This document shows, piece after piece, positions 1 through 8,697 of a stretch of 36,460 bases of DNA. Each line of letters starts with the position of its first letter. Position 1 is the first letter of the stretch. Origin of the DNA: a virus (lineage: Duplodnaviria; Heunggongvirae; Uroviricota; Caudoviricetes). The stretch is taken from positions 1 to 36,460 of IMG/VR virus record IMGVR_UViG_2534681674_000020; one strand, given 5' to 3'. Below the pieces are notes generated by a model. It ran no database searches and was not told where the DNA came from. It worked only from the letters and a program-made list of their open reading frames with translations. A program made the translations under genes and the position numbers.

Positions 1-1
1 A

Positions 2-622
2 AATCCAATTAGATTCAGCGCAGAGTCATTAGATATTATTGAGAAAAAATTGTCTTCTCCAGATTTTAAGCATACCAACTGGGGAGATGATGATTTGCAA
101 GTTCTCCGTGCAGAAATTAGAAATCATTACAGAGAAGAACAAAAGCTAGAATGTGTATATTGTCATGAGCCTATTGGGGTAAGAGCTGCACAAGCTGCTC
201 CTATAGAGCATATTGTGCCAAAATCTCAATATCTATGTTTTATTTTTGAACCTAAGAATCTATGTGTAGTATGTCCTGACTGCAATGAATTCAAAGGTAA
301 AAATGAAGTGTTATTTGAACCCGTAATAAATGGGGGGCGGCGCAAAAACTATCCAACTGCATCTGCATCATTTCGCATCGTTCATCCACATATAGATGAT
401 TATGAGATGCATATTATAAAAGCAAATCGTGTTTATGTGGACAAAACACCTAAAGGGCACTATACCATTGGAATATGTAAACTAAATAGATTTTTTCATT
501 ATTTTGGGATGTGTGATGAATTTGTTAATGATGCAAAAATTGCTGAGGCAAATGAAAATTTTTTCAAAAAAGGTAGTATTACTACTAATGAATTATTGGA
601 TGATGACATTCATTTGATTTAA
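2..622 (+). CDS. HNH-family nuclease domain protein, 5'-partial (reading frame open to window start; listed ORF begins at TTG 50)
   Basis: Frame is open from nt 2 with no stop before 622. Translation shows a CxxC...HIVP...N...CxxCN..K pattern typical of HNH endonucleases. Strongly AT-rich relative to neighbouring phage genes. Confidence 0.5.
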   Translation, partial: NPIRFSAESLDIIEKKLSSPDFKHTNWGDDDLQVLRAEIRNHYREEQKLECVYCHEPIGVRAAQAAPIEHIVPKSQYLCFIFEPKNLCVVCPDCNEFKGKNEVLFEPVINGGRRKNYPTASASFRIVHPHIDDYEMHIIKANRVYVDKTPKGHYTIGICKLNRFFHYFGMCDEFVNDAKIAEANENFFKKGSITTNELLDDDIHLI

Positions 623-935
623 CTATGAATTATTATATTGTAAAGTAATCAGGTAAGATATGTTAGACAGTGAGACTATTGCCTTACAGAATTCATTATT
701 CTTATGGATCGCCTTTCTGACTGATTTCATATTGGCGGGGTAACGGGAGTTAAGTAGAATGGCTGCGGGTGCTTGAGGCTATCTGTCTCAGGCATGAACA
801 CCAAAGGCAGATAGAGAAAAGCCCCAGTTAACATTACGCGTCCTGCAAGACGCTTAACATTAATCTGAGGCCAATTTCATGCTAGACACATGTAGGTTAG
901 CCTCTTACGTGCCGAAAGGCAAGGAGAAGCAGGCT

Positions 936-1091
936 ATGAAGCAGCAAAAGGCGATGTTAATCGCCCTGATCGTCATCTGTTTAACCGTCATAGTGACGGC
1001 ACTGGTAACGAGGAAAGACCTCTGCGAGGTACGAATCCGAACCGGCCAGACGGAGGTCGCTGTCTTCACAGCTTACGAACCTGAGGAGTAA
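936..1091 (+). CDS. hok: Hok/Gef-family type I toxin (51 aa), HokD/RelF-like
   Basis: Translation MKQQKAMLIALIVICLTVIVTALVTRKDLCEVRIRTGQTEVAVFTAYEPEE matches Hok-family membrane toxins. Strong SD AAGGAGAAG at 921-929. An in-frame upstream extension from 879 gives a 70-aa mok-like frame. Confidence 0.85.
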   Translation: MKQQKAMLIALIVICLTVIVTALVTRKDLCEVRIRTGQTEVAVFTAYEPEE

Positions 1092-1161
1092 GAGACCCGG
1101 CGAGGGAGAAATCCCTCGCCACCTCTGATGTGGCAGGCATCCTCAACGCACCCGCACTTAA

Positions 1162-1190
1162 CCCGCTTCGGCGGGTTTTTGTTTTTATTT
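1162..1190 (+). terminator. Rho-independent terminator after hok
   Basis: GC hairpin cccgc-ttcg-gcggg followed by a T-run (tttttgttttt). Confidence 0.6.
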
Positions 1191-1307
1191 TCAACGCGTT
1201 TGAAGTTCTGGACGGCGCCGGAATAGAATCAAAAATACTTAAGTAGCGCGCAGGGATAAGAGGGATGGTCCCTTAAAGGGGAGAGCTAATTATCCGGAAG
1301 GATTCTG

Positions 1308-1559
1308 ATGATGAACATCGAAGAACTGCGTAAAATTTTTTGTGAAGATGGCCTCTATGCTGTGTGCGTTGAAAATGGAAATCTTGTTAGTCATTACCGC
1401 ATTATGTGTTTGCGAAAGAATGGGGCTGCGTTAATTAATTTTGTGGATGGTCGAGTGACAGACGGATTTATCTTGCGCGAAGGTGAGTTTGTCACTTCAT
1501 TACAGGCACTGAAAGAGATCGGAATAAAAGCAGGCTTTTCAGCTTTTGCAGAAGAATAA
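1308..1559 (+). CDS. rem: Small prophage protein, Rem-like (83 aa)
   Basis: 83-aa ORF with SD-like GGAAGGA upstream. Position between hok and the DUF968 gene matches the hokD-rem-ydfU arrangement I recall from the Qin prophage. Function unknown. Confidence 0.5.
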   Translation: MMNIEELRKIFCEDGLYAVCVENGNLVSHYRIMCLRKNGAALINFVDGRVTDGFILREGEFVTSLQALKEIGIKAGFSAFAEE

Positions 1560-1625
1560 ACTCATCTACAATCTTGCGCGGGGCTGAACTCCCGCTGAGT
1601 AACACCGTGCCACCGGAGAAAACCG

Positions 1626-1904
1626 ATGGCACGCAACGTAAAATATTACAATTCTGATAATTCGCCCGTTCTTGCCTGCACGCACGAGCGGTATTCTCAC
1701 GCATTCAAGTCTGAATGGTTCCAACACCCTCCATGTACTGAAGAGCAGGCTGAATGGATAATTCAGTGTTACCGCAGGCGCGGATACGAGGTTAAGAAAG
1801 CCCTTAGTCTCGACTACCGTCACTGGATAATCTCCGTCAGGCTTCCTTACTCTGAACGCCCACCGCGTCCGTCTCGCACATTCCAGCAACGCATCTGGAG
1901 GTAA
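1626..1904 (+). CDS. Hypothetical protein (92 aa); possibly a frame-shifted or overlapping leader of the downstream DUF968 gene
   Basis: ORF from the six-frame track. The Pro/Arg-rich C-terminal tail looks atypical, so boundaries are uncertain. Confidence 0.3.
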   Translation: MARNVKYYNSDNSPVLACTHERYSHAFKSEWFQHPPCTEEQAEWIIQCYRRRGYEVKKALSLDYRHWIISVRLPYSERPPRPSRTFQQRIWR

Positions 1905-1905
1905 C

Positions 1906-2955
1906 GTGCGGGTATTACTTCGACCTGTTCTGGTACCGGAACTCGGGCTGGTGATCGTTAAGCCGGGCCGTGAATCCATGCCAGTATTCCACAATACCCG
2001 GGTATTGATGGAGCCGGAACCGAAAAGCATGCGTAATCTGCCGTCCGGGGTCGTTCCTGCCGTTCGCCAGCCGCTGGTGGAAGACAAAACATTGCTGCCG
2101 TTTTTCAGTAACGCACGGGTGATTCGTGCTGCTGGTGGTGCTGGTGCATTGTCTGACTGGCTGTTGCGTCACGTGAAATCCTGCCAGTGGCCACACGGCG
2201 ATTATCATCACAGCGAAACTGTCATTCACCGTTATGGTACCGGCGCAATGGTGTTGTGCTGGCACTGCGACAACCAGCTGCGTGACCAGACATCCGAATC
2301 ACTCGAGCAACTTGCTCATCAAAACCTGTCAGCATGGATGATTGACGTCATCGGTCACGCAATAAGCGGTACGCAGGAGCGTGAATTATCTTTGGCTGAA
2401 TTATCCTGGTGGGCGGTCCGCAATCAGGTGGCGGACGCGCTACCGGAAGCGGTATTACGTCGTTCGCTGGGGGTGCGTGCGGAAAAAATCCGCTCAATGT
2501 ACCGTGAAAGCGACATCGTGCCGGGAGAGCAGACCGCCACCAGCATACTGAAGCAGCGCACAAAAAATATTGCGTTACTGCCTGACGTCCACCAGCAACA
2601 GAACCCACCACAGGAAAAGACGGTGGTCAGCATTGCCGTTGATCCTGAGTCTCCGGAATCTTTCATGAAACGACCTAAACGTCGCCGCTGGGTTAACGAG
2701 AAATACACACGCTGGGTGAAGACTCAGCCGTGTGCGTGTTGTGGTAAGCCAGCCGACGATCCCCATCACCTGATTGGTCATGGTCAGGGCGGAATGGGGA
2801 CAAAATCTCACGATATTTTCACGCTACCGCTGTGTCGGGAGCATCACAACGAGCTTCATGCGGATCCGCTGGCGTTCGAAGAAAAGCATGGCTCTCAGGT
2901 TGATTTAATTTTTCGTTTTCTTGATCACGCCTTTGCAACTGGCGTGCTTGGGTAA
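1906..2955 (+). CDS. DUF968 (YdfU-like) prophage protein with C-terminal Cys/His-rich HNH-like motif
   Basis: 349-aa ORF. C-terminus has CACCG...PHHLIGHG...CREHHNELH. Position upstream of rusA and Q matches the nin-like region. Start is uncertain (GTG 1906 or ATG 1978). Confidence 0.65.
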   Translation: MRVLLRPVLVPELGLVIVKPGRESMPVFHNTRVLMEPEPKSMRNLPSGVVPAVRQPLVEDKTLLPFFSNARVIRAAGGAGALSDWLLRHVKSCQWPHGDYHHSETVIHRYGTGAMVLCWHCDNQLRDQTSESLEQLAHQNLSAWMIDVIGHAISGTQERELSLAELSWWAVRNQVADALPEAVLRRSLGVRAEKIRSMYRESDIVPGEQTATSILKQRTKNIALLPDVHQQQNPPQEKTVVSIAVDPESPESFMKRPKRRRWVNEKYTRWVKTQPCACCGKPADDPHHLIGHGQGGMGTKSHDIFTLPLCREHHNELHADPLAFEEKHGSQVDLIFRFLDHAFATGVLG

Positions 2956-2967
2956 AAGAGGTGACTG

Positions 2968-3327
2968 ATGCTCATAGATTTGGTTTTACCTTACCCGCCG
3001 ACGGTGAACACTTACTGGCGACGCCGTGGCAGCACATATTTTATCTCGGAGGAGGGAAAGCGTTATCGCCGGGCTGTGGCGCTTATTGTTCGCCAGCAGC
3101 GGCTGAAATTAAGCCTGTCCGGAAGGCTGGCGATAAAGATTATTGCAGAGCCACCGGATAAGCGCCGTCGTGATCTGGACAATATCCTGAAAGCACCGCT
3201 GGATGCGCTGACGCATGCCGGACTTCTCATAGACGACGAGCAGTTTGATGAAATCAATATTGTGCGCGGTCAGCTCGTTTCTGGTGGGCGGCTGGGCGTG
3301 AAGATTTACAAAATTGAAAGTGAGTGA
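2968..3327 (+). CDS. rusA: Holliday junction resolvase RusA
   Basis: 119-aa product with the conserved RRRDLDN core and overall collinearity with E. coli RusA. SD AAAGAGGTGA upstream. Confidence 0.85.
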   Translation: MLIDLVLPYPPTVNTYWRRRGSTYFISEEGKRYRRAVALIVRQQRLKLSLSGRLAIKIIAEPPDKRRRDLDNILKAPLDALTHAGLLIDDEQFDEINIVRGQLVSGGRLGVKIYKIESE

Positions 3328-3890
3328 GCATAAATATGATATACCCGGAAATTACAGGCAAAAGCGGTGAGCATTTACGCCTGAAAACGCTGGAAAGTGT
3401 CTGGATCCAGGGGAAACTGCGTATGTGGGGGCGTTGGTCGTATATTGGCGACGGTAAGACGGGAAATATGTTCAACCAATTACTGACCTCTAAAAAGCTG
3501 ACAAAAACGGCAATTAACGAGGCGCTCCGGAGGATGAAAAAAGCGGGTCTGGACAAACCTGAACTTGAGGCTTTTTTGCGGGATATGATCAACGGCAATC
3601 AAAAAAGCTGGCTGGCACATTGTACCGATTCAGAGGCGTTAATAATCGACAGGGTTATTGGTGAAGTACTGGCAGGTTATCCCGGGCTGCTCAATGTTCT
3701 GAGTCAGCGTTATGTGGGGCGGGGGATGACTAAGCGCAAAATGGCTGAACTGCTGAATGATGCACATCCGGAATGGAGTTTAAGAACCTGTGAAAGACGC
3801 ATTGAGCATTGGCTAAAGGTGGCAGAATTTATTTTGTACAAACCAATGGTTATGGCTTTTGGTATAGAGAAAAAAGTTATTGCTTTTTGA
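3324..3890 (+). CDS. Late-gene antitermination protein Q-like
   Basis: 188-aa ORF directly after rusA and directly before a tR'-like terminator and the late genes. Called by synteny with lambdoid phages; the Q family was not verified by motif. Start may be GTG 3324 or ATG 3336. Confidence 0.55.
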   Translation: MSINMIYPEITGKSGEHLRLKTLESVWIQGKLRMWGRWSYIGDGKTGNMFNQLLTSKKLTKTAINEALRRMKKAGLDKPELEAFLRDMINGNQKSWLAHCTDSEALIIDRVIGEVLAGYPGLLNVLSQRYVGRGMTKRKMAELLNDAHPEWSLRTCERRIEHWLKVAEFILYKPMVMAFGIEKKVIAF

Positions 3891-3968
3891 CGTAAAAACT
3901 GCTTCAATTCCGGTAAGCTTCGCAAAGCTGTACCGCGAGGCGAATAGCAGACATGGACATTTGAAAGA

Positions 3969-3991
3969 GCCCGCTTTTTGCGGGTTTTTTT
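3969..3991 (+). terminator. tR'-like rho-independent terminator downstream of Q
   Basis: Hairpin gcccgc-ttttt-gcgggt followed by a run of seven T. Position is typical of the lambdoid late-operon terminator that Q antiterminates. Confidence 0.65.
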
Positions 3992-4113
3992 ATGACTGAA
4001 AAACGGCACGGGGCGTTAAATGCGCTGGTGGTTGCGAATACCGGTCTTTCTGCTTACTGGCTTTTTGGACAAGAGTTATTGGTATGTCACGTTAACCAAA
4101 AGGGAAAAAAGAC

Positions 4114-4311
4114 ATGCTAAAACAGCAGGATATGACAGAAACCGCCAGAGTGGTGTTTAATGAATTAAGCGTTACCGACCCGGCGACAGTCGGGGAGATT
4201 GCGCAGAATACTTACCTTTCACGCGAACGCTGCCAGTTAATACTGACCCAGCTTGTTATGGCGGGTCTGGCAGACTATCAGTTCGGTTGTTACAGACGCC
4301 TTCCGCAGTGA
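4114..4311 (+). CDS. Small winged-helix protein, PapI/FaeA-like (65 aa)
   Basis: ORF of 65 aa. The central segment (VTDPATVGEIAQNTYLSRERCQLILTQLVMAGL) resembles the PapI/FaeA HTH pattern by eye. Lies immediately upstream of a DNA methyltransferase. Confidence 0.45.
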   Translation: MLKQQDMTETARVVFNELSVTDPATVGEIAQNTYLSRERCQLILTQLVMAGLADYQFGCYRRLPQ

Positions 4312-4461
4312 AGGCTTTTTTATTTGTGGTAAATGGGCGGCTGGTGGGTGTTAGGGGCACCTACCAGCCATCTGCTCATGCGTTGGGTTCACAAGCAAAC
4401 CTCAGGCCCACTGCTTTGCGCAAAAGCAGAATGAGCCTATCAGAGACAGGCTTAATGATCC

Positions 4462-5538
4462 ATGCTTAATACTGTAAAAATATCCAGTTGTGAGTTAATC
4501 AACGCTGATTGCCTGGAATTTATCCAGACCTTACCGGAAAACTCTGTCGATCTGATAGTCACAGACCCGCCATACTTTAAAGTGAAGCCCGAGGGCTGGG
4601 ATAACCAGTGGAAGGGCGACGATGATTACCTGAAGTGGCTGGACCAGTGTCTGGCGCAGTTCTGGCGGGTGCTGAAACCTGCCGGAAGTCTTTACCTGTT
4701 CTGTGACCATCGCCTGGCATCTGACATTGAAATCATGATGCGTGAACGCTTCAATGTGCTGAACCATATTATCTGGGCGAAGCCGTCCGGACGCTGGAAC
4801 GGGTGCAACAAGGAAAGCCTGCGGGCGTATTTTCCGGCCACAGAACGCATTCTGTTCGCGGAACATTATCAGGGGCCGTATCGTCCGAAAGATGATGGCG
4901 ATGAGGCGAAGGGCAGGGCACTGAAACAGCATGTGATGGCCCCGCTGATTTCTTACTTTCGTGATGCGCGTGCTGCTCTTGGGATAACAGCAAAACAGAT
5001 TGCAGATGCCACAGGAAAGAAAAACATGGTGTCGCACTGGTTCAGTGCCAGTCAGTGGCAGCTACCGAACGAAAGCGATTATCTGAAATTACAGTCGCTG
5101 TTTGCCCGGGTGGCAGAAGAGAAACATCAGCGGGGAGAACTGGAAAAGTCCCATTACCAACTGGTCAGCACATACAGTGAGCTGAACCGACAGTACATGG
5201 AACTGCTGAGTGAATATAAAAATTTGCGGCGGTATTTCGGTGTGACGGTGCAGGTGCCGTACACCGATGTGTGGACGCATAAACCGGTGCAGTACTATCC
5301 AGGGAAACATCCGTGCGAAAAACCGGCAGAAATGCTGCGGCAGATAATCTGCGCGAGCAGTCGTCCGGGTGACCTGGTGGCGGATTTTTTCATGGGTTCT
5401 GGCTCAACCATAAAAGCAGCTATGGCGCTCGGGCGTCGTGCAACTGGTGTTGAACTGGAGGCAGAACGTTTTGCGCAGACCGTTAAGGAGATTAGTCACA
5501 TCCTTACATGCTCAATTGATGACGGGAAGGATGAATAA
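4462..5538 (+). CDS. Orphan DNA methyltransferase (beta-class amino-MTase; N6-adenine or N4-cytosine)
   Basis: 358-aa product with a DPPY catalytic motif near the N-terminus and an FxGxG AdoMet-binding motif (DFFMGSGST) near the C-terminus. No cognate restriction gene is visible. Confidence 0.85.
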   Translation: MLNTVKISSCELINADCLEFIQTLPENSVDLIVTDPPYFKVKPEGWDNQWKGDDDYLKWLDQCLAQFWRVLKPAGSLYLFCDHRLASDIEIMMRERFNVLNHIIWAKPSGRWNGCNKESLRAYFPATERILFAEHYQGPYRPKDDGDEAKGRALKQHVMAPLISYFRDARAALGITAKQIADATGKKNMVSHWFSASQWQLPNESDYLKLQSLFARVAEEKHQRGELEKSHYQLVSTYSELNRQYMELLSEYKNLRRYFGVTVQVPYTDVWTHKPVQYYPGKHPCEKPAEMLRQIICASSRPGDLVADFFMGSGSTIKAAMALGRRATGVELEAERFAQTVKEISHILTCSIDDGKDE

Positions 5539-6760
5539 AGATATGGTCAGTTCAGGCTGTGAAGCAAGTAGACAGATAAGGCTGCAATAAAAACTGACAA
5601 TAGTAAAATAGCTTTTTCCCAGGTAGTCATGAATACGATCTCTTAAAGCGCCCGCTGATACCAGCGGGCAATACATACTGGCATTAATGTTAAGTTCAGG
5701 GATAATTCATCGTATTTTGTGGTACGACGCTATCAATATTAATAAAAAGTATTTTTCATGTAAAATTTCTGTTTTTTTGATCTGATTCTCGTTTCCTGGG
5801 TTATGATGTTGTTGTGAACCATGCTGTTGAATGATAATGTTCGGGTATAAAATTGTTGCTGATATGTAGCGCAGTGAGCAGGTGGTATTTCTGTTGCTGA
5901 GTGTACGGATACAGTGCTTCCCTCCCTCAGCGGGGGGGCAGGTGTGCTGTGGTTTTAGAGACACCGGAAACGAGAATGATGCGGGTTTGCTGGTGCCGGG
6001 ATAGAGTCGCCGGAGGTCATGACATAGAGCAAAAAAGGAATGTGCATGCAAATACACACCTCTTCGGAGAGCTCTTCTTTATATGGATGAGCCTCAAGGT
6101 CAATAGTTTATCTGTTATGTATTCATATGTTGTTACTTATATAATCCATACGGGCATATCATCAGTACACACATACTATTATGGCATTTTATTTTTGTTT
6201 TAACTGAATTCCCGGGGCACTCTTTTTGATTTCTGATAAGGAACCAGAATTTTCTGTTAAATGGTGTCACGTTGTAAATGGTTAATGGAAGCAGCTTATT
6301 ATCCATAATCACACCTGAGTTAACAGGTGTGAGAATACTTCCGGGTGGCAGGAACACATCTGACTGATACCAGATTATCAACTTTATTTTACACCATACA
6401 GTTGAAAACGTTATTCCGCTTGATGGGCATATCACTGTGTCAATAACTATCCATTCCATCTTTTAACCTTCTCGGTACACATTGCTTTCGATTGTTTTGC
6501 TAAAAATCATAGTCAATAAATCAGTGTAACTCATTGAAAAAGATCGTCTTCTTTGTCTTCCTGGGGTTTTCTTTTCTAATTTTGTATCACTTTGGTTCAA
6601 GTTGTTTCATTTTTTTGTAATACAAATTAGCAGGATGAGCGGGAATATAAAAAAATCGGATGTTTTTGTAATGGATATTATTTTTTTGTAAAATAATGTA
6701 TTTTTATTTAAATCTCTATCAGAAAAGAATTTATTGTTCCTTTATATGGTGGAAAAGGTC

Positions 6761-8697
6761 ATGGTATTTAAACACTACGATGTGGTCAGGGCGGCGTCGC
6801 CGTCAGATCTTGCGGAAAAGCTGACACAAAAACTGAAGGAGGGGTGGCAGCCATTTGGCAGCCCGGTGGCCATCACGCCTTATACTCTGATGCAGGCCAT
6901 TGCGGCGGAAGGTGATGTCACCACACCTGTGTTGGTGAAGCCGTCGGATGGAGAAGGCACAGTAATCAGCGCCACCAGAGACCCGGAGTATTACTTTGTT
7001 GTGGTTCTGGCGGGGCAGTCAAACAGCATGGCATATGGTGAAGGCCTTCCGCTGCCGGAGACATATGACCGTCCGGACCCGCGTATTAAGCAGCTGGCGC
7101 GCCGCAGTACGGTGACACCGGGCGGTGCAGCATGCAAATATAACGACATCATTCCGGCGGACCATTGTCTGCATGATGTGCAGGACATGAGCCGCCTTAA
7201 CCATCCGAAAGCGGACCTGTCAAAGGGGCAGTACGGAACCGTGGGGCAGGGGCTGCATATCGCCAAAAAACTGCTGCCGTTTATACCGGCGAATGCGGGC
7301 ATTCTGCTGGTTCCGTGCTGTCGTGGTGGTTCAGCGTTCACCACCGGAGCTGATGGCACATACAGTGACGCGAGTGGTGCTTCGGAGAATTCAACCCGCT
7401 GGGGTGTGGACAAGCCGCTGTATAAGGACCTTATCGGTCGAACAAAAGCAGCACTGAAGAAGAACCCGAAAAATGTGCTGCTTGCCGTGGTGTGGATGCA
7501 GGGGGAATTTGATTTTGGCGGTACGCCGGCAAATCACGCAGCACAGTTTGGTGCGCTGGTTGATAAATTCCGTGCAGACCTGGCGGATATGGCAGGTCAG
7601 TGCGTCGGTGGATCTGCTGACGGTGTTCCCTGGATATGCGGGGACACGACGTATTTCTGGAAGCAGAAGAACGAATCCTCGTACCAGACGGTGTACGGCA
7701 GCTACAAAAACAAACGGAAAAGAATATCCATTTCGTACCGTTCATGACGGATGAGAACGGGGTGAATGTGCCGACGAACAAACCGGAAGAAGACCCGGAC
7801 ATTCCGGGTATCGGATATTACGGTTCGAAATGGCGTGACAGCTCAGCCACCTGGACGTCACAGGACAGGGCGAGCCATTTCAGCGCCTGGGCACGCCGCG
7901 GGATTATTTCCGACCGTCTGGCAACGGCGATTTTGCGCCATGCGGGAGGAGTGGCGCTAAACGCGGGGGCATCATCGACAGTATCAGAGGTGCGCCCGTC
8001 ATCGCCTTCCGGTGCAGAAGCCACAGGCGTCACAACACTGCTCTCTTACCTTGCCAGCGAGTCAGAGGGAAGCCTGAAAGTACAGGGATGGTCAGCCAGT
8101 GGCGGCAGGGCAGAAGTGGTCAGCGATGCGGAGGGAACCGGAGGTAAGGCAGTGAAGCTGACCAAGGAAGCCGGTAAAAGCAGCTGGGTGCTGGAGTACG
8201 CCGCGGGCAACGGTGCGGCTCTGTTACAGAAAGGGGGGCAGATTCGCTGCCGCTTTAAGGTTTCGGGAGCGCTGGCTGCGAACCAGTATGTTATGGCGTT
8301 TTACTGGCCGGTATCTTCACTGCCACAGGGCGTTGCCCTGACCGGAGACGGGGGGAATAACCTGCTGGCAGCGTTCTACATCCAGACAGATGCAAAAGAC
8401 CTGAATGTGATGTACCACAATGCGAAAGTGGCGACAAACAACCTGAAACTGGGAAGCTTTGGCGCATTTGATAACGAATGGCATGCGCTGGCTTTCCGCT
8501 TTGCCGGGAATAACAGCCTTCAGGTGACGCCGGTTATTGATGGTCAGGATGGTACACCGTTCACGCTGACGCAGTCACCGGTCAGTGCCTTTGCGGCGGA
8601 TAAACTGCATGTGACAGACATTACCAGAGGTGCGACTTACCCGGTACTGATAGACAGCATTGCGGTGGAAGTGAACAGCACAGACACTGCGGCATGA
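6761..8697 (+). pseudogene. nanS-p: Prophage sialate O-acetylesterase NanS-p-like (DUF1737 + SGNH/SASA esterase), disrupted by a frameshift
   Basis: Two overlapping ORFs (6734..7747 in frame 2, 7636..8697 in frame 1) together form one approximately 645-aa protein. N-terminus MVFKHYDVVRAASPSDLAEKL is DUF1737-like. Frame change lies within 7630-7747, probably in the A-rich tract around 7705-7716. SD GGAAAAGG before ATG 6761. Confidence 0.7.

Follow-up and report, generated by a model that had tools for sequence, protein, structure and literature searches.

What is the AT-rich gene that opens the viral record IMGVR_UViG_2534681674_000020? The window, that is, the whole stretch of DNA analysed (36,460 nucleotides, nt), is the right-hand two thirds of a lambdoid prophage. 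Its first reading frame lies at positions 2 to 622 of the + strand. The original prediction described it as an HNH nuclease gene and as a candidate anti-phage defence component sitting in a prophage accessory slot, with the main part of the system outside the window. We find that this gene is, with high confidence, ptuB, the nuclease half of a stand-alone type I Septu anti-phage system. Septu was reportedly first described by Doron et al. in 2018. It is a catalogued defence system that existing tools detect, and the PtuAB pair of this prophage is of an already known kind.

The frame at 2-622 encodes 206 residues without an internal stop and ends with a TAA at 620-622. At the composition of ptuB, stops represent about 7% of random codons. 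By our own arithmetic, the chance of an open frame of 206 codons is near 1e-7. The frame was predicted to be cut by the window edge and to continue upstream. It does run off the edge, but the missing part is merely 14 nt, and five codons are absent. The start is visible in genomes that are identical to the window at bases 1-1582: ATG CCA AAA ATT AAA (MPKIK), 14 nt upstream of base 1. The window contains codons 6-211 and the stop codon, about 98% of the gene. The full-length protein has 211 amino acids (aa) and is WP_001124204.1 in strain 2013C-4974, which is identical to window bases 1-1582.

The HNH signature recognized in the original prediction is present, and the nuclease is of the beta-beta-alpha-metal type. 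More precisely, the motifs CVYC, EHIVPKS and CPDCN follow each other in this order and supply C56/C59, H75 and C96/C99/N100 (full-length numbering, used hereafter). The Pfam family HNH (PF01844) matches the protein with 24.0 bits, above the cut-off of 21.4. The prediction was also right about a base composition unlike that of the phage backbone. The GC content of ptuB is 33.5% (21% at third codon positions), compared with 50.1% at positions 695-5000 and 52.8% in the whole window.

The proposed check was to extend the sequence upstream and to run hidden Markov model searches. In the genomes identical over 1-1582, the extension recovers the full reading frame and, directly upstream, a separate ATPase gene, which is the main part expected outside the window. 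This gene, ptuA, encodes a 457-aa ABC/SMC-like protein annotated as 'AAA family ATPase' (WP_000827089.1), and its stop codon falls just outside, ending one base ahead of the window. The reading frames of ptuA and ptuB overlap by 14 nt, which suggests that the two genes are translationally coupled. The PADLOC model PtuA1 (PDLC00283) covers residues 2-455 of the 457 in PtuA with an E-value of 1.2e-165. Likewise, the model PtuB1 (PDLC00325) covers residues 4-209 of the 211 in PtuB with an E-value of 1.1e-83. Pfam assigns PtuA to AAA_21/AAA_15. Its nucleotide-binding motifs are intact: Walker A GKNGVGKS (34-41, K40), signature SSGEQ (286-290), Walker B IILIDE (308-313; D312/E313) and H-loop THS (346-348). 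Both proteins are thus matched over their full length by Septu models, and the idea of a defence component holds. The idea of an uncharacterised system does not, since Septu has PADLOC models as well as published structures and mechanisms (PDB 8EE4/8EE7; PMC12819146; PMC13096335). In this way, a generic RefSeq pair of 'HNH endonuclease / AAA family ATPase', present also in enteropathogenic Escherichia coli (EPEC) E2348/69, receives the name of a defence system.

The conservation of PtuB supports the same identification. A search of 5.8 billion proteins gave 159 homologues, in genera such as Dickeya, Cronobacter, Pseudomonas, Achromobacter, Aeromonas, Photobacterium, Acinetobacter and Burkholderia. 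The clade of PtuAB defined by PDLC00283/PDLC00325 occurs widely among Gamma- and Betaproteobacteria. Across 51 aligned homologues, residues C56, C59, E74, H75, N91, C93, C96 and C99 are invariant, as is a downstream H-P-H-x-D block, and at least 90% of the homologues keep N100. Our PtuB has its catalytic residues (H75, N91, N100) and its zinc-binding cysteines (C56, C59, C96, C99) intact. For the homologues from Photobacterium, Burkholderia and Pseudomonas (45-70% identity), the next gene upstream is also of AAA_15/AAA_21 type and overlaps by the same 14 nt. In Photobacterium, this ATPase gene is shortened and an insertion sequence (IS) element is adjacent. Among 5426 complete E. coli genomes, 19 carry the ptuAB DNA at 99.9% identity or more, with both genes every time; the prototype EPEC strain E2348/69 is one of them.

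The fold gives a similar picture. When the profile of the 51 homologues was searched against the PDB, all the top ranks were PtuB-type chains (9n69_F, E-value 5.5e-6; the HNH protein of retron Ec83, 3.8e-5; the Septu PtuB 8ee7_C, 0.015). In the fold comparison, the match to PtuB extends across about 150 residues, well past the HNH core. In Septu type I, the PtuA oligomer binds PtuB by means of a C-terminal extension of PtuA and a helical C-terminal domain of PtuB. The structure model of our PtuB has a helical C-terminal part (H150-198), and the alignment with PtuB continues beyond the core.

Compared with Septu type I as modelled in PADLOC, the pair shows no architectural difference. Here too, an ABC-type ATPase and an HNH nuclease are encoded together in one two-gene operon, and the models match both over their full length. 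No third gene, reverse transcriptase (RT) or non-coding RNA (ncRNA) is present here either, and a defence slot in a mobile element is common to both. For stand-alone Septu, PMC12819146 describes a hexameric, inflammasome-like PtuA scaffold that carries PtuB. There, DNA nicking drops as ATP rises, and phage proteins, for example a tail fibre, activate the system. The same paper reports that PtuA of the Septu of E. coli ATCC 25922 (8EE4/8EE7) is without ATPase activity. With this system, PtuB shares 17% identity in structural alignment, and PtuA is detectable in the Walker B lobe only (E-value 3.2e-7).

A second stand-alone system, EcB88 of E. coli JBBDAGI-19-0041, protects against T5-like phages and some of the T-even ones (PMC13096335). 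In infected cells, tRNA-Tyr is cleaved in its variable loop, and the defence is abolished by mutations in Walker A, in Walker B, or by the PtuB changes H75A or N91A (PMC13096335). EcB88 is similar in size (PtuA of 452 aa), and the counterpart residues here are K40 and D312 in PtuA and H75 and N91 in PtuB. The same numbers are given for catalytic residues of PtuB in tested E. coli Septu systems (H75 in both papers on these systems, N91 in PMC13096335), and we considered that our PtuB could be an E. coli protein that had already been tested. The supplementary sequences show a different subfamily, and the identical numbering of H75 and N91 in EcB88 is a coincidence.

By analogy with the characterised Septu systems, PtuA would oligomerise into a scaffold, bind PtuB and hold the nuclease inactive in uninfected cells. 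The infection would be sensed through phage proteins, a fall in ATP, or both, and the nuclease activity of PtuB would then be released. This activity would nick DNA, as observed in vitro, and lead to cleavage in the variable loop of the host tRNA-Tyr, as seen in vivo with the E. coli systems that were studied in this way. The outcome would be growth arrest and a loss of phage yield, similar to abortive infection. Carried by a lambdoid prophage, the cassette would protect the lysogen from other phages. A scaffold that restrains its nuclease is the most likely scheme for this PtuAB, judging from its relatives; for this subfamily, the complex of PtuA and PtuB, its trigger and substrate and a defence phenotype are all extrapolated from them. 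The locus opens no new mechanism.

Several points weigh against the identification as a Septu system or against this scheme. ptuA lies beyond the window, and its presence and integrity in the source of the window are deduced from the genomes identical over 1-1582. In one of the 19 E. coli genomes with ptuAB, ptuA is annotated as split. A scan for promoters upstream of ptuA gave 12 sites where 11.6 were expected, which is the level of chance. With PtuB alone, phmmer against the PDB sequences found a botulinum toxin as best match (E-value 0.13), and the PtuB chain 8ee7_C had an E-value of 0.23. In structural alignment, PtuB is at most 17% identical to the solved PtuB chains, and PtuA is similar to PtuA and AriA chains of known structure only across the signature/Walker B lobe. 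EcB88 represents a different subfamily, with 29% identity of PtuA over 139 residues and a PtuB that is unlike ours around the active site. Literature searches returned no paper that names these RefSeq accessions or studies this allele. The trigger and the substrate may differ from those of the studied Septu, because sequence similarity to every experimentally studied PtuAB, from Septu or retrons, is low.

The low identity of PtuB to any solved PtuB (17% or less) is also the reason to consider a variant of the scheme. This clade might sense another phage cue, or cut a substrate other than tRNA-Tyr or DNA. Separately, the DUF5677 protein encoded nearby might be a third component or a regulator. 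We regard this variant as unlikely.

Around the two genes, the Septu cassette measures about 4.3 kb and has 36.6% GC. It comprises a DUF5677 gene, a frameshifted tyrosine-recombinase gene, ptuA and ptuB, and is inserted between the replication genes and hokD of the lambdoid prophage. The right junction is near window position 695. The left junction follows the replication genes, near position 9832 of locus L005. Downstream of ptuB, an AT-rich 3' tail (623-694, no strand assigned; 29% GC) ends at the right junction with conserved prophage DNA. A terminator scan found none 3' of ptuB. When window positions 1-3000 were searched with megablast, 17 of the 5426 complete E. coli genomes covered at least 80%. 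Below the full-length matches, most of the listed records start to align at position 695, and a prophage with a different cargo gene is near-identical from about 695 on. The same cassette occupies different chromosomal sites (potC in E2348/69, tRNA-Ser/mtfA in others), and the flanks are 95-99.9% identical. As the cassette is shared across sites whose flanks are only this similar, sequence comparison points to its recent transfer as a unit.

The DUF5677 gene (280 aa) and the frameshifted recombinase gene lie upstream of ptuA (locus L001, 11746-13214) and accompany ptuAB in at least 17 E. coli genomes. The DUF5677 protein has no PADLOC match, and its PHROG (4167) is of unknown function. One preprint chose a DUF5677 open reading frame (ORF) as a defence candidate, but does not name it among its active ORFs. 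The record NZ_CP148379.1 (8461 bp) was deposited as a circular plasmid and contains nothing except prophage early genes (cI, cro, ydaT, replication O-/P-like genes), the Septu cassette, hokD and rem. This is an artefact of the assembly or a circle that was excised.

The pair could also be inactive in defence: a silent remnant, or a toxin module of addiction type whose main role is to stabilise the cassette beside hokD. The prophage is decaying, as seen in its recombinase pseudogene, IS3 copies, terL in-frame stop and split esterase gene. The promoter signal upstream of ptuA is no higher than chance, and PtuAB is toxic when released in retron systems, according to PMC12819146. Against a remnant, both frames and all the catalytic motifs are intact in 18 of the 19 genomes at 99.9% identity or more, while the flanks diverge and the integration sites differ. 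An intact ptuAB amid divergent flanks argues for a recent spread of the cassette, for selection on its integrity, or for both. We consider an inactive pair very unlikely; a degraded fragment, which the original prediction had foreseen as a possible outcome, is not what the upstream sequence contains.

Other families also combine an ABC ATPase with a nuclease, namely PARIS (AriAB), AbiL, PDC-M01 and those of OLD/Gabija type. The C-terminal ATPase lobe of PtuA matches the AriA, PDC-M01A and AbiLi models (E-values from 1e-17 to 1e-28), and AriA is the top single-sequence match of PtuA in the PDB (1.6e-12). However, most of these matches span about 80-120 residues (those to AriA, 3e-22 or weaker, some 80-130), and those to AriA and PDC-M01A are restricted to the signature/Walker B lobe. 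The match to AbiLi is longer (residues 29-381) but weak (5e-18). Conversely, the PtuA1 models span the whole of PtuA at 1e-165. Moreover, the partner is an HNH protein with the PtuB fold, and not a Toprim AriB, an AbiLii or a helicase. Membership in one of these families is therefore highly improbable.

Another reading takes the pair as the effector module of a type I-A retron, such as Ec78/Eco7 or Ec83, in which PtuAB is curbed by the RT and multicopy single-stranded DNA (msDNA). These retrons have an RT, an ncRNA and msDNA; none of them is found here. In three genomes, no RT is annotated in the flanks of ptuAB (12-15 kb; none within 12 kb), and the upstream neighbours are the DUF5677 gene and the recombinase pseudogene. 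At the Rfam gathering score, the E2348/69 locus contains no retron RNA family, msr included. The NCBIfam equivalogs of retron Ec78 remain far below their cut-offs (NF041760 for PtuA, 65.8 against 500; NF041761 for PtuB, 30.6 against 150). PtuA is also shorter, with 457 aa compared with 542-552 aa in the solved full-length chains of the retron type, and lacks an extension of about 90 residues. PMC12819146 describes an N-terminal extension and a helical flap in retron-type PtuA. Because the RT, the retron RNA and the equivalog matches are all absent or below cut-off, the system is a stand-alone type I Septu and not a retron effector pair, for which we see next to no chance.

Finally, that ptuB is a homing endonuclease of the phage or a terminase-associated packaging HNH of the prophage itself is hardly credible: the HNH motif does lie in a prophage and weakly matches HNH endonucleases of PHROG (E-values from 4e-7 to 7e-4), but these matches span only a core of about 65 residues (about 42-116) where PtuB matches over the full length and by fold over about 150 residues; the ABC ATPase partner with overlapping frames is conserved across genera and in non-prophage contexts too; more than 11 kb separate the gene from the terminase genes (about 12.2-14.8 kb in the window); the gene is within a cassette of foreign composition; and the pair has no match in 50,697 phage records beyond a single 250-nt match in a Vibrio phage, at 69% identity. 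Since the PHROG matches are weak and limited to the core and the terminase is this distant, ptuB is not a packaging or homing nuclease. Nor is it without a partner gene, as the original prediction had allowed.

The type I Septu pair sits in a slot that other prophages fill differently. The prediction had placed the gene beside hok, and hokD, a type I toxin gene which is not part of Septu, is indeed at 936-1091 on the + strand (RefSeq annotation of identical DNA, locus L001, 15936-16091). It had also stated that in Qin-like prophages relBE stands upstream of hokD. The K-12 Qin order relB-relE-hokD-rem-ydfU agrees with this, and here ptuB takes the place of relBE. The slot is the same relative to hokD-rem-ydfU, between the replication genes and the nin-like region, and the genes are unrelated. 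In E. coli VE-V10-F, a 310-aa HEPN-domain protein is found in the slot upstream of hokD (locus L003, 4627-5559). As relBE, a HEPN protein or Septu occupy it in different prophages, this site ahead of hokD is a cargo hotspot, where toxin or defence genes are swapped in Qin-like as in other lambdoid prophages.

The border of the insert also differs. In K-12 Qin, the relBE insert reaches the ribosome-binding site of hokD and has removed the hok/sok leader. Here, the junction is about 70 nt upstream of the leader, which is complete at 767-941 (+ strand; Rfam RF01794, sok, 118.3 bits against a gathering score of 59, over the full length of the model) and does not belong to Septu. Because the leader is complete, hokD may still be under antisense control. 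A terminator-like hairpin was found by the terminator scan 3' of hokD, at 1160-1177.

In the rest of the prophage, hokD is followed by rem, a DUF968 protein, RusA, a Q-like DUF1133 protein, a methyltransferase, iraM and the lysis genes. Then come the head and tail genes, lom, a tail fibre gene and an effector gene. The DUF968 protein (YdfU-like, 1906-2955) has a sub-threshold match to a putative HNHc_6 nuclease domain at residues 271-319. This segment is the second HNH-like element of the window and is unrelated to ptuB. A gene for a SASA-type carbohydrate esterase / DUF6645 protein (6734-8697) is broken up into two ORFs that overlap (6734-7747 and 7636-8697), and near-identical genomes have it annotated as frameshifted.

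Between the lysis and packaging regions, an IS3-family element (10553-11766) presents two overlapping ORFs and an ALIL frameshift pseudoknot at 10834-10950. In related genomes, IS3 copies are located elsewhere around the Septu cassette. The large terminase gene, terL, has an in-frame TAG at 13955-13957 (…EKLDH*VLMDK…) and is otherwise 99.5% identical to an intact homologue of 643 aa. The prophage is probably unable to package DNA. The tail fibre gene contains a 45-nt tandem repeat (33785-33875) that encodes collagen-like Gly-X-Y (Pfam Collagen, together with phage_tail_N and Phage_fiber_C). At the right end of the prophage, positions 34854-35840 encode a 328-aa protein with a HEIIH motif, which matches Pfam Peptidase_M85 with an E-value of 1.4e-112. 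This family comprises the zinc proteases of NleC type that degrade NF-kB p65, and the gene is a type III secretion effector gene.
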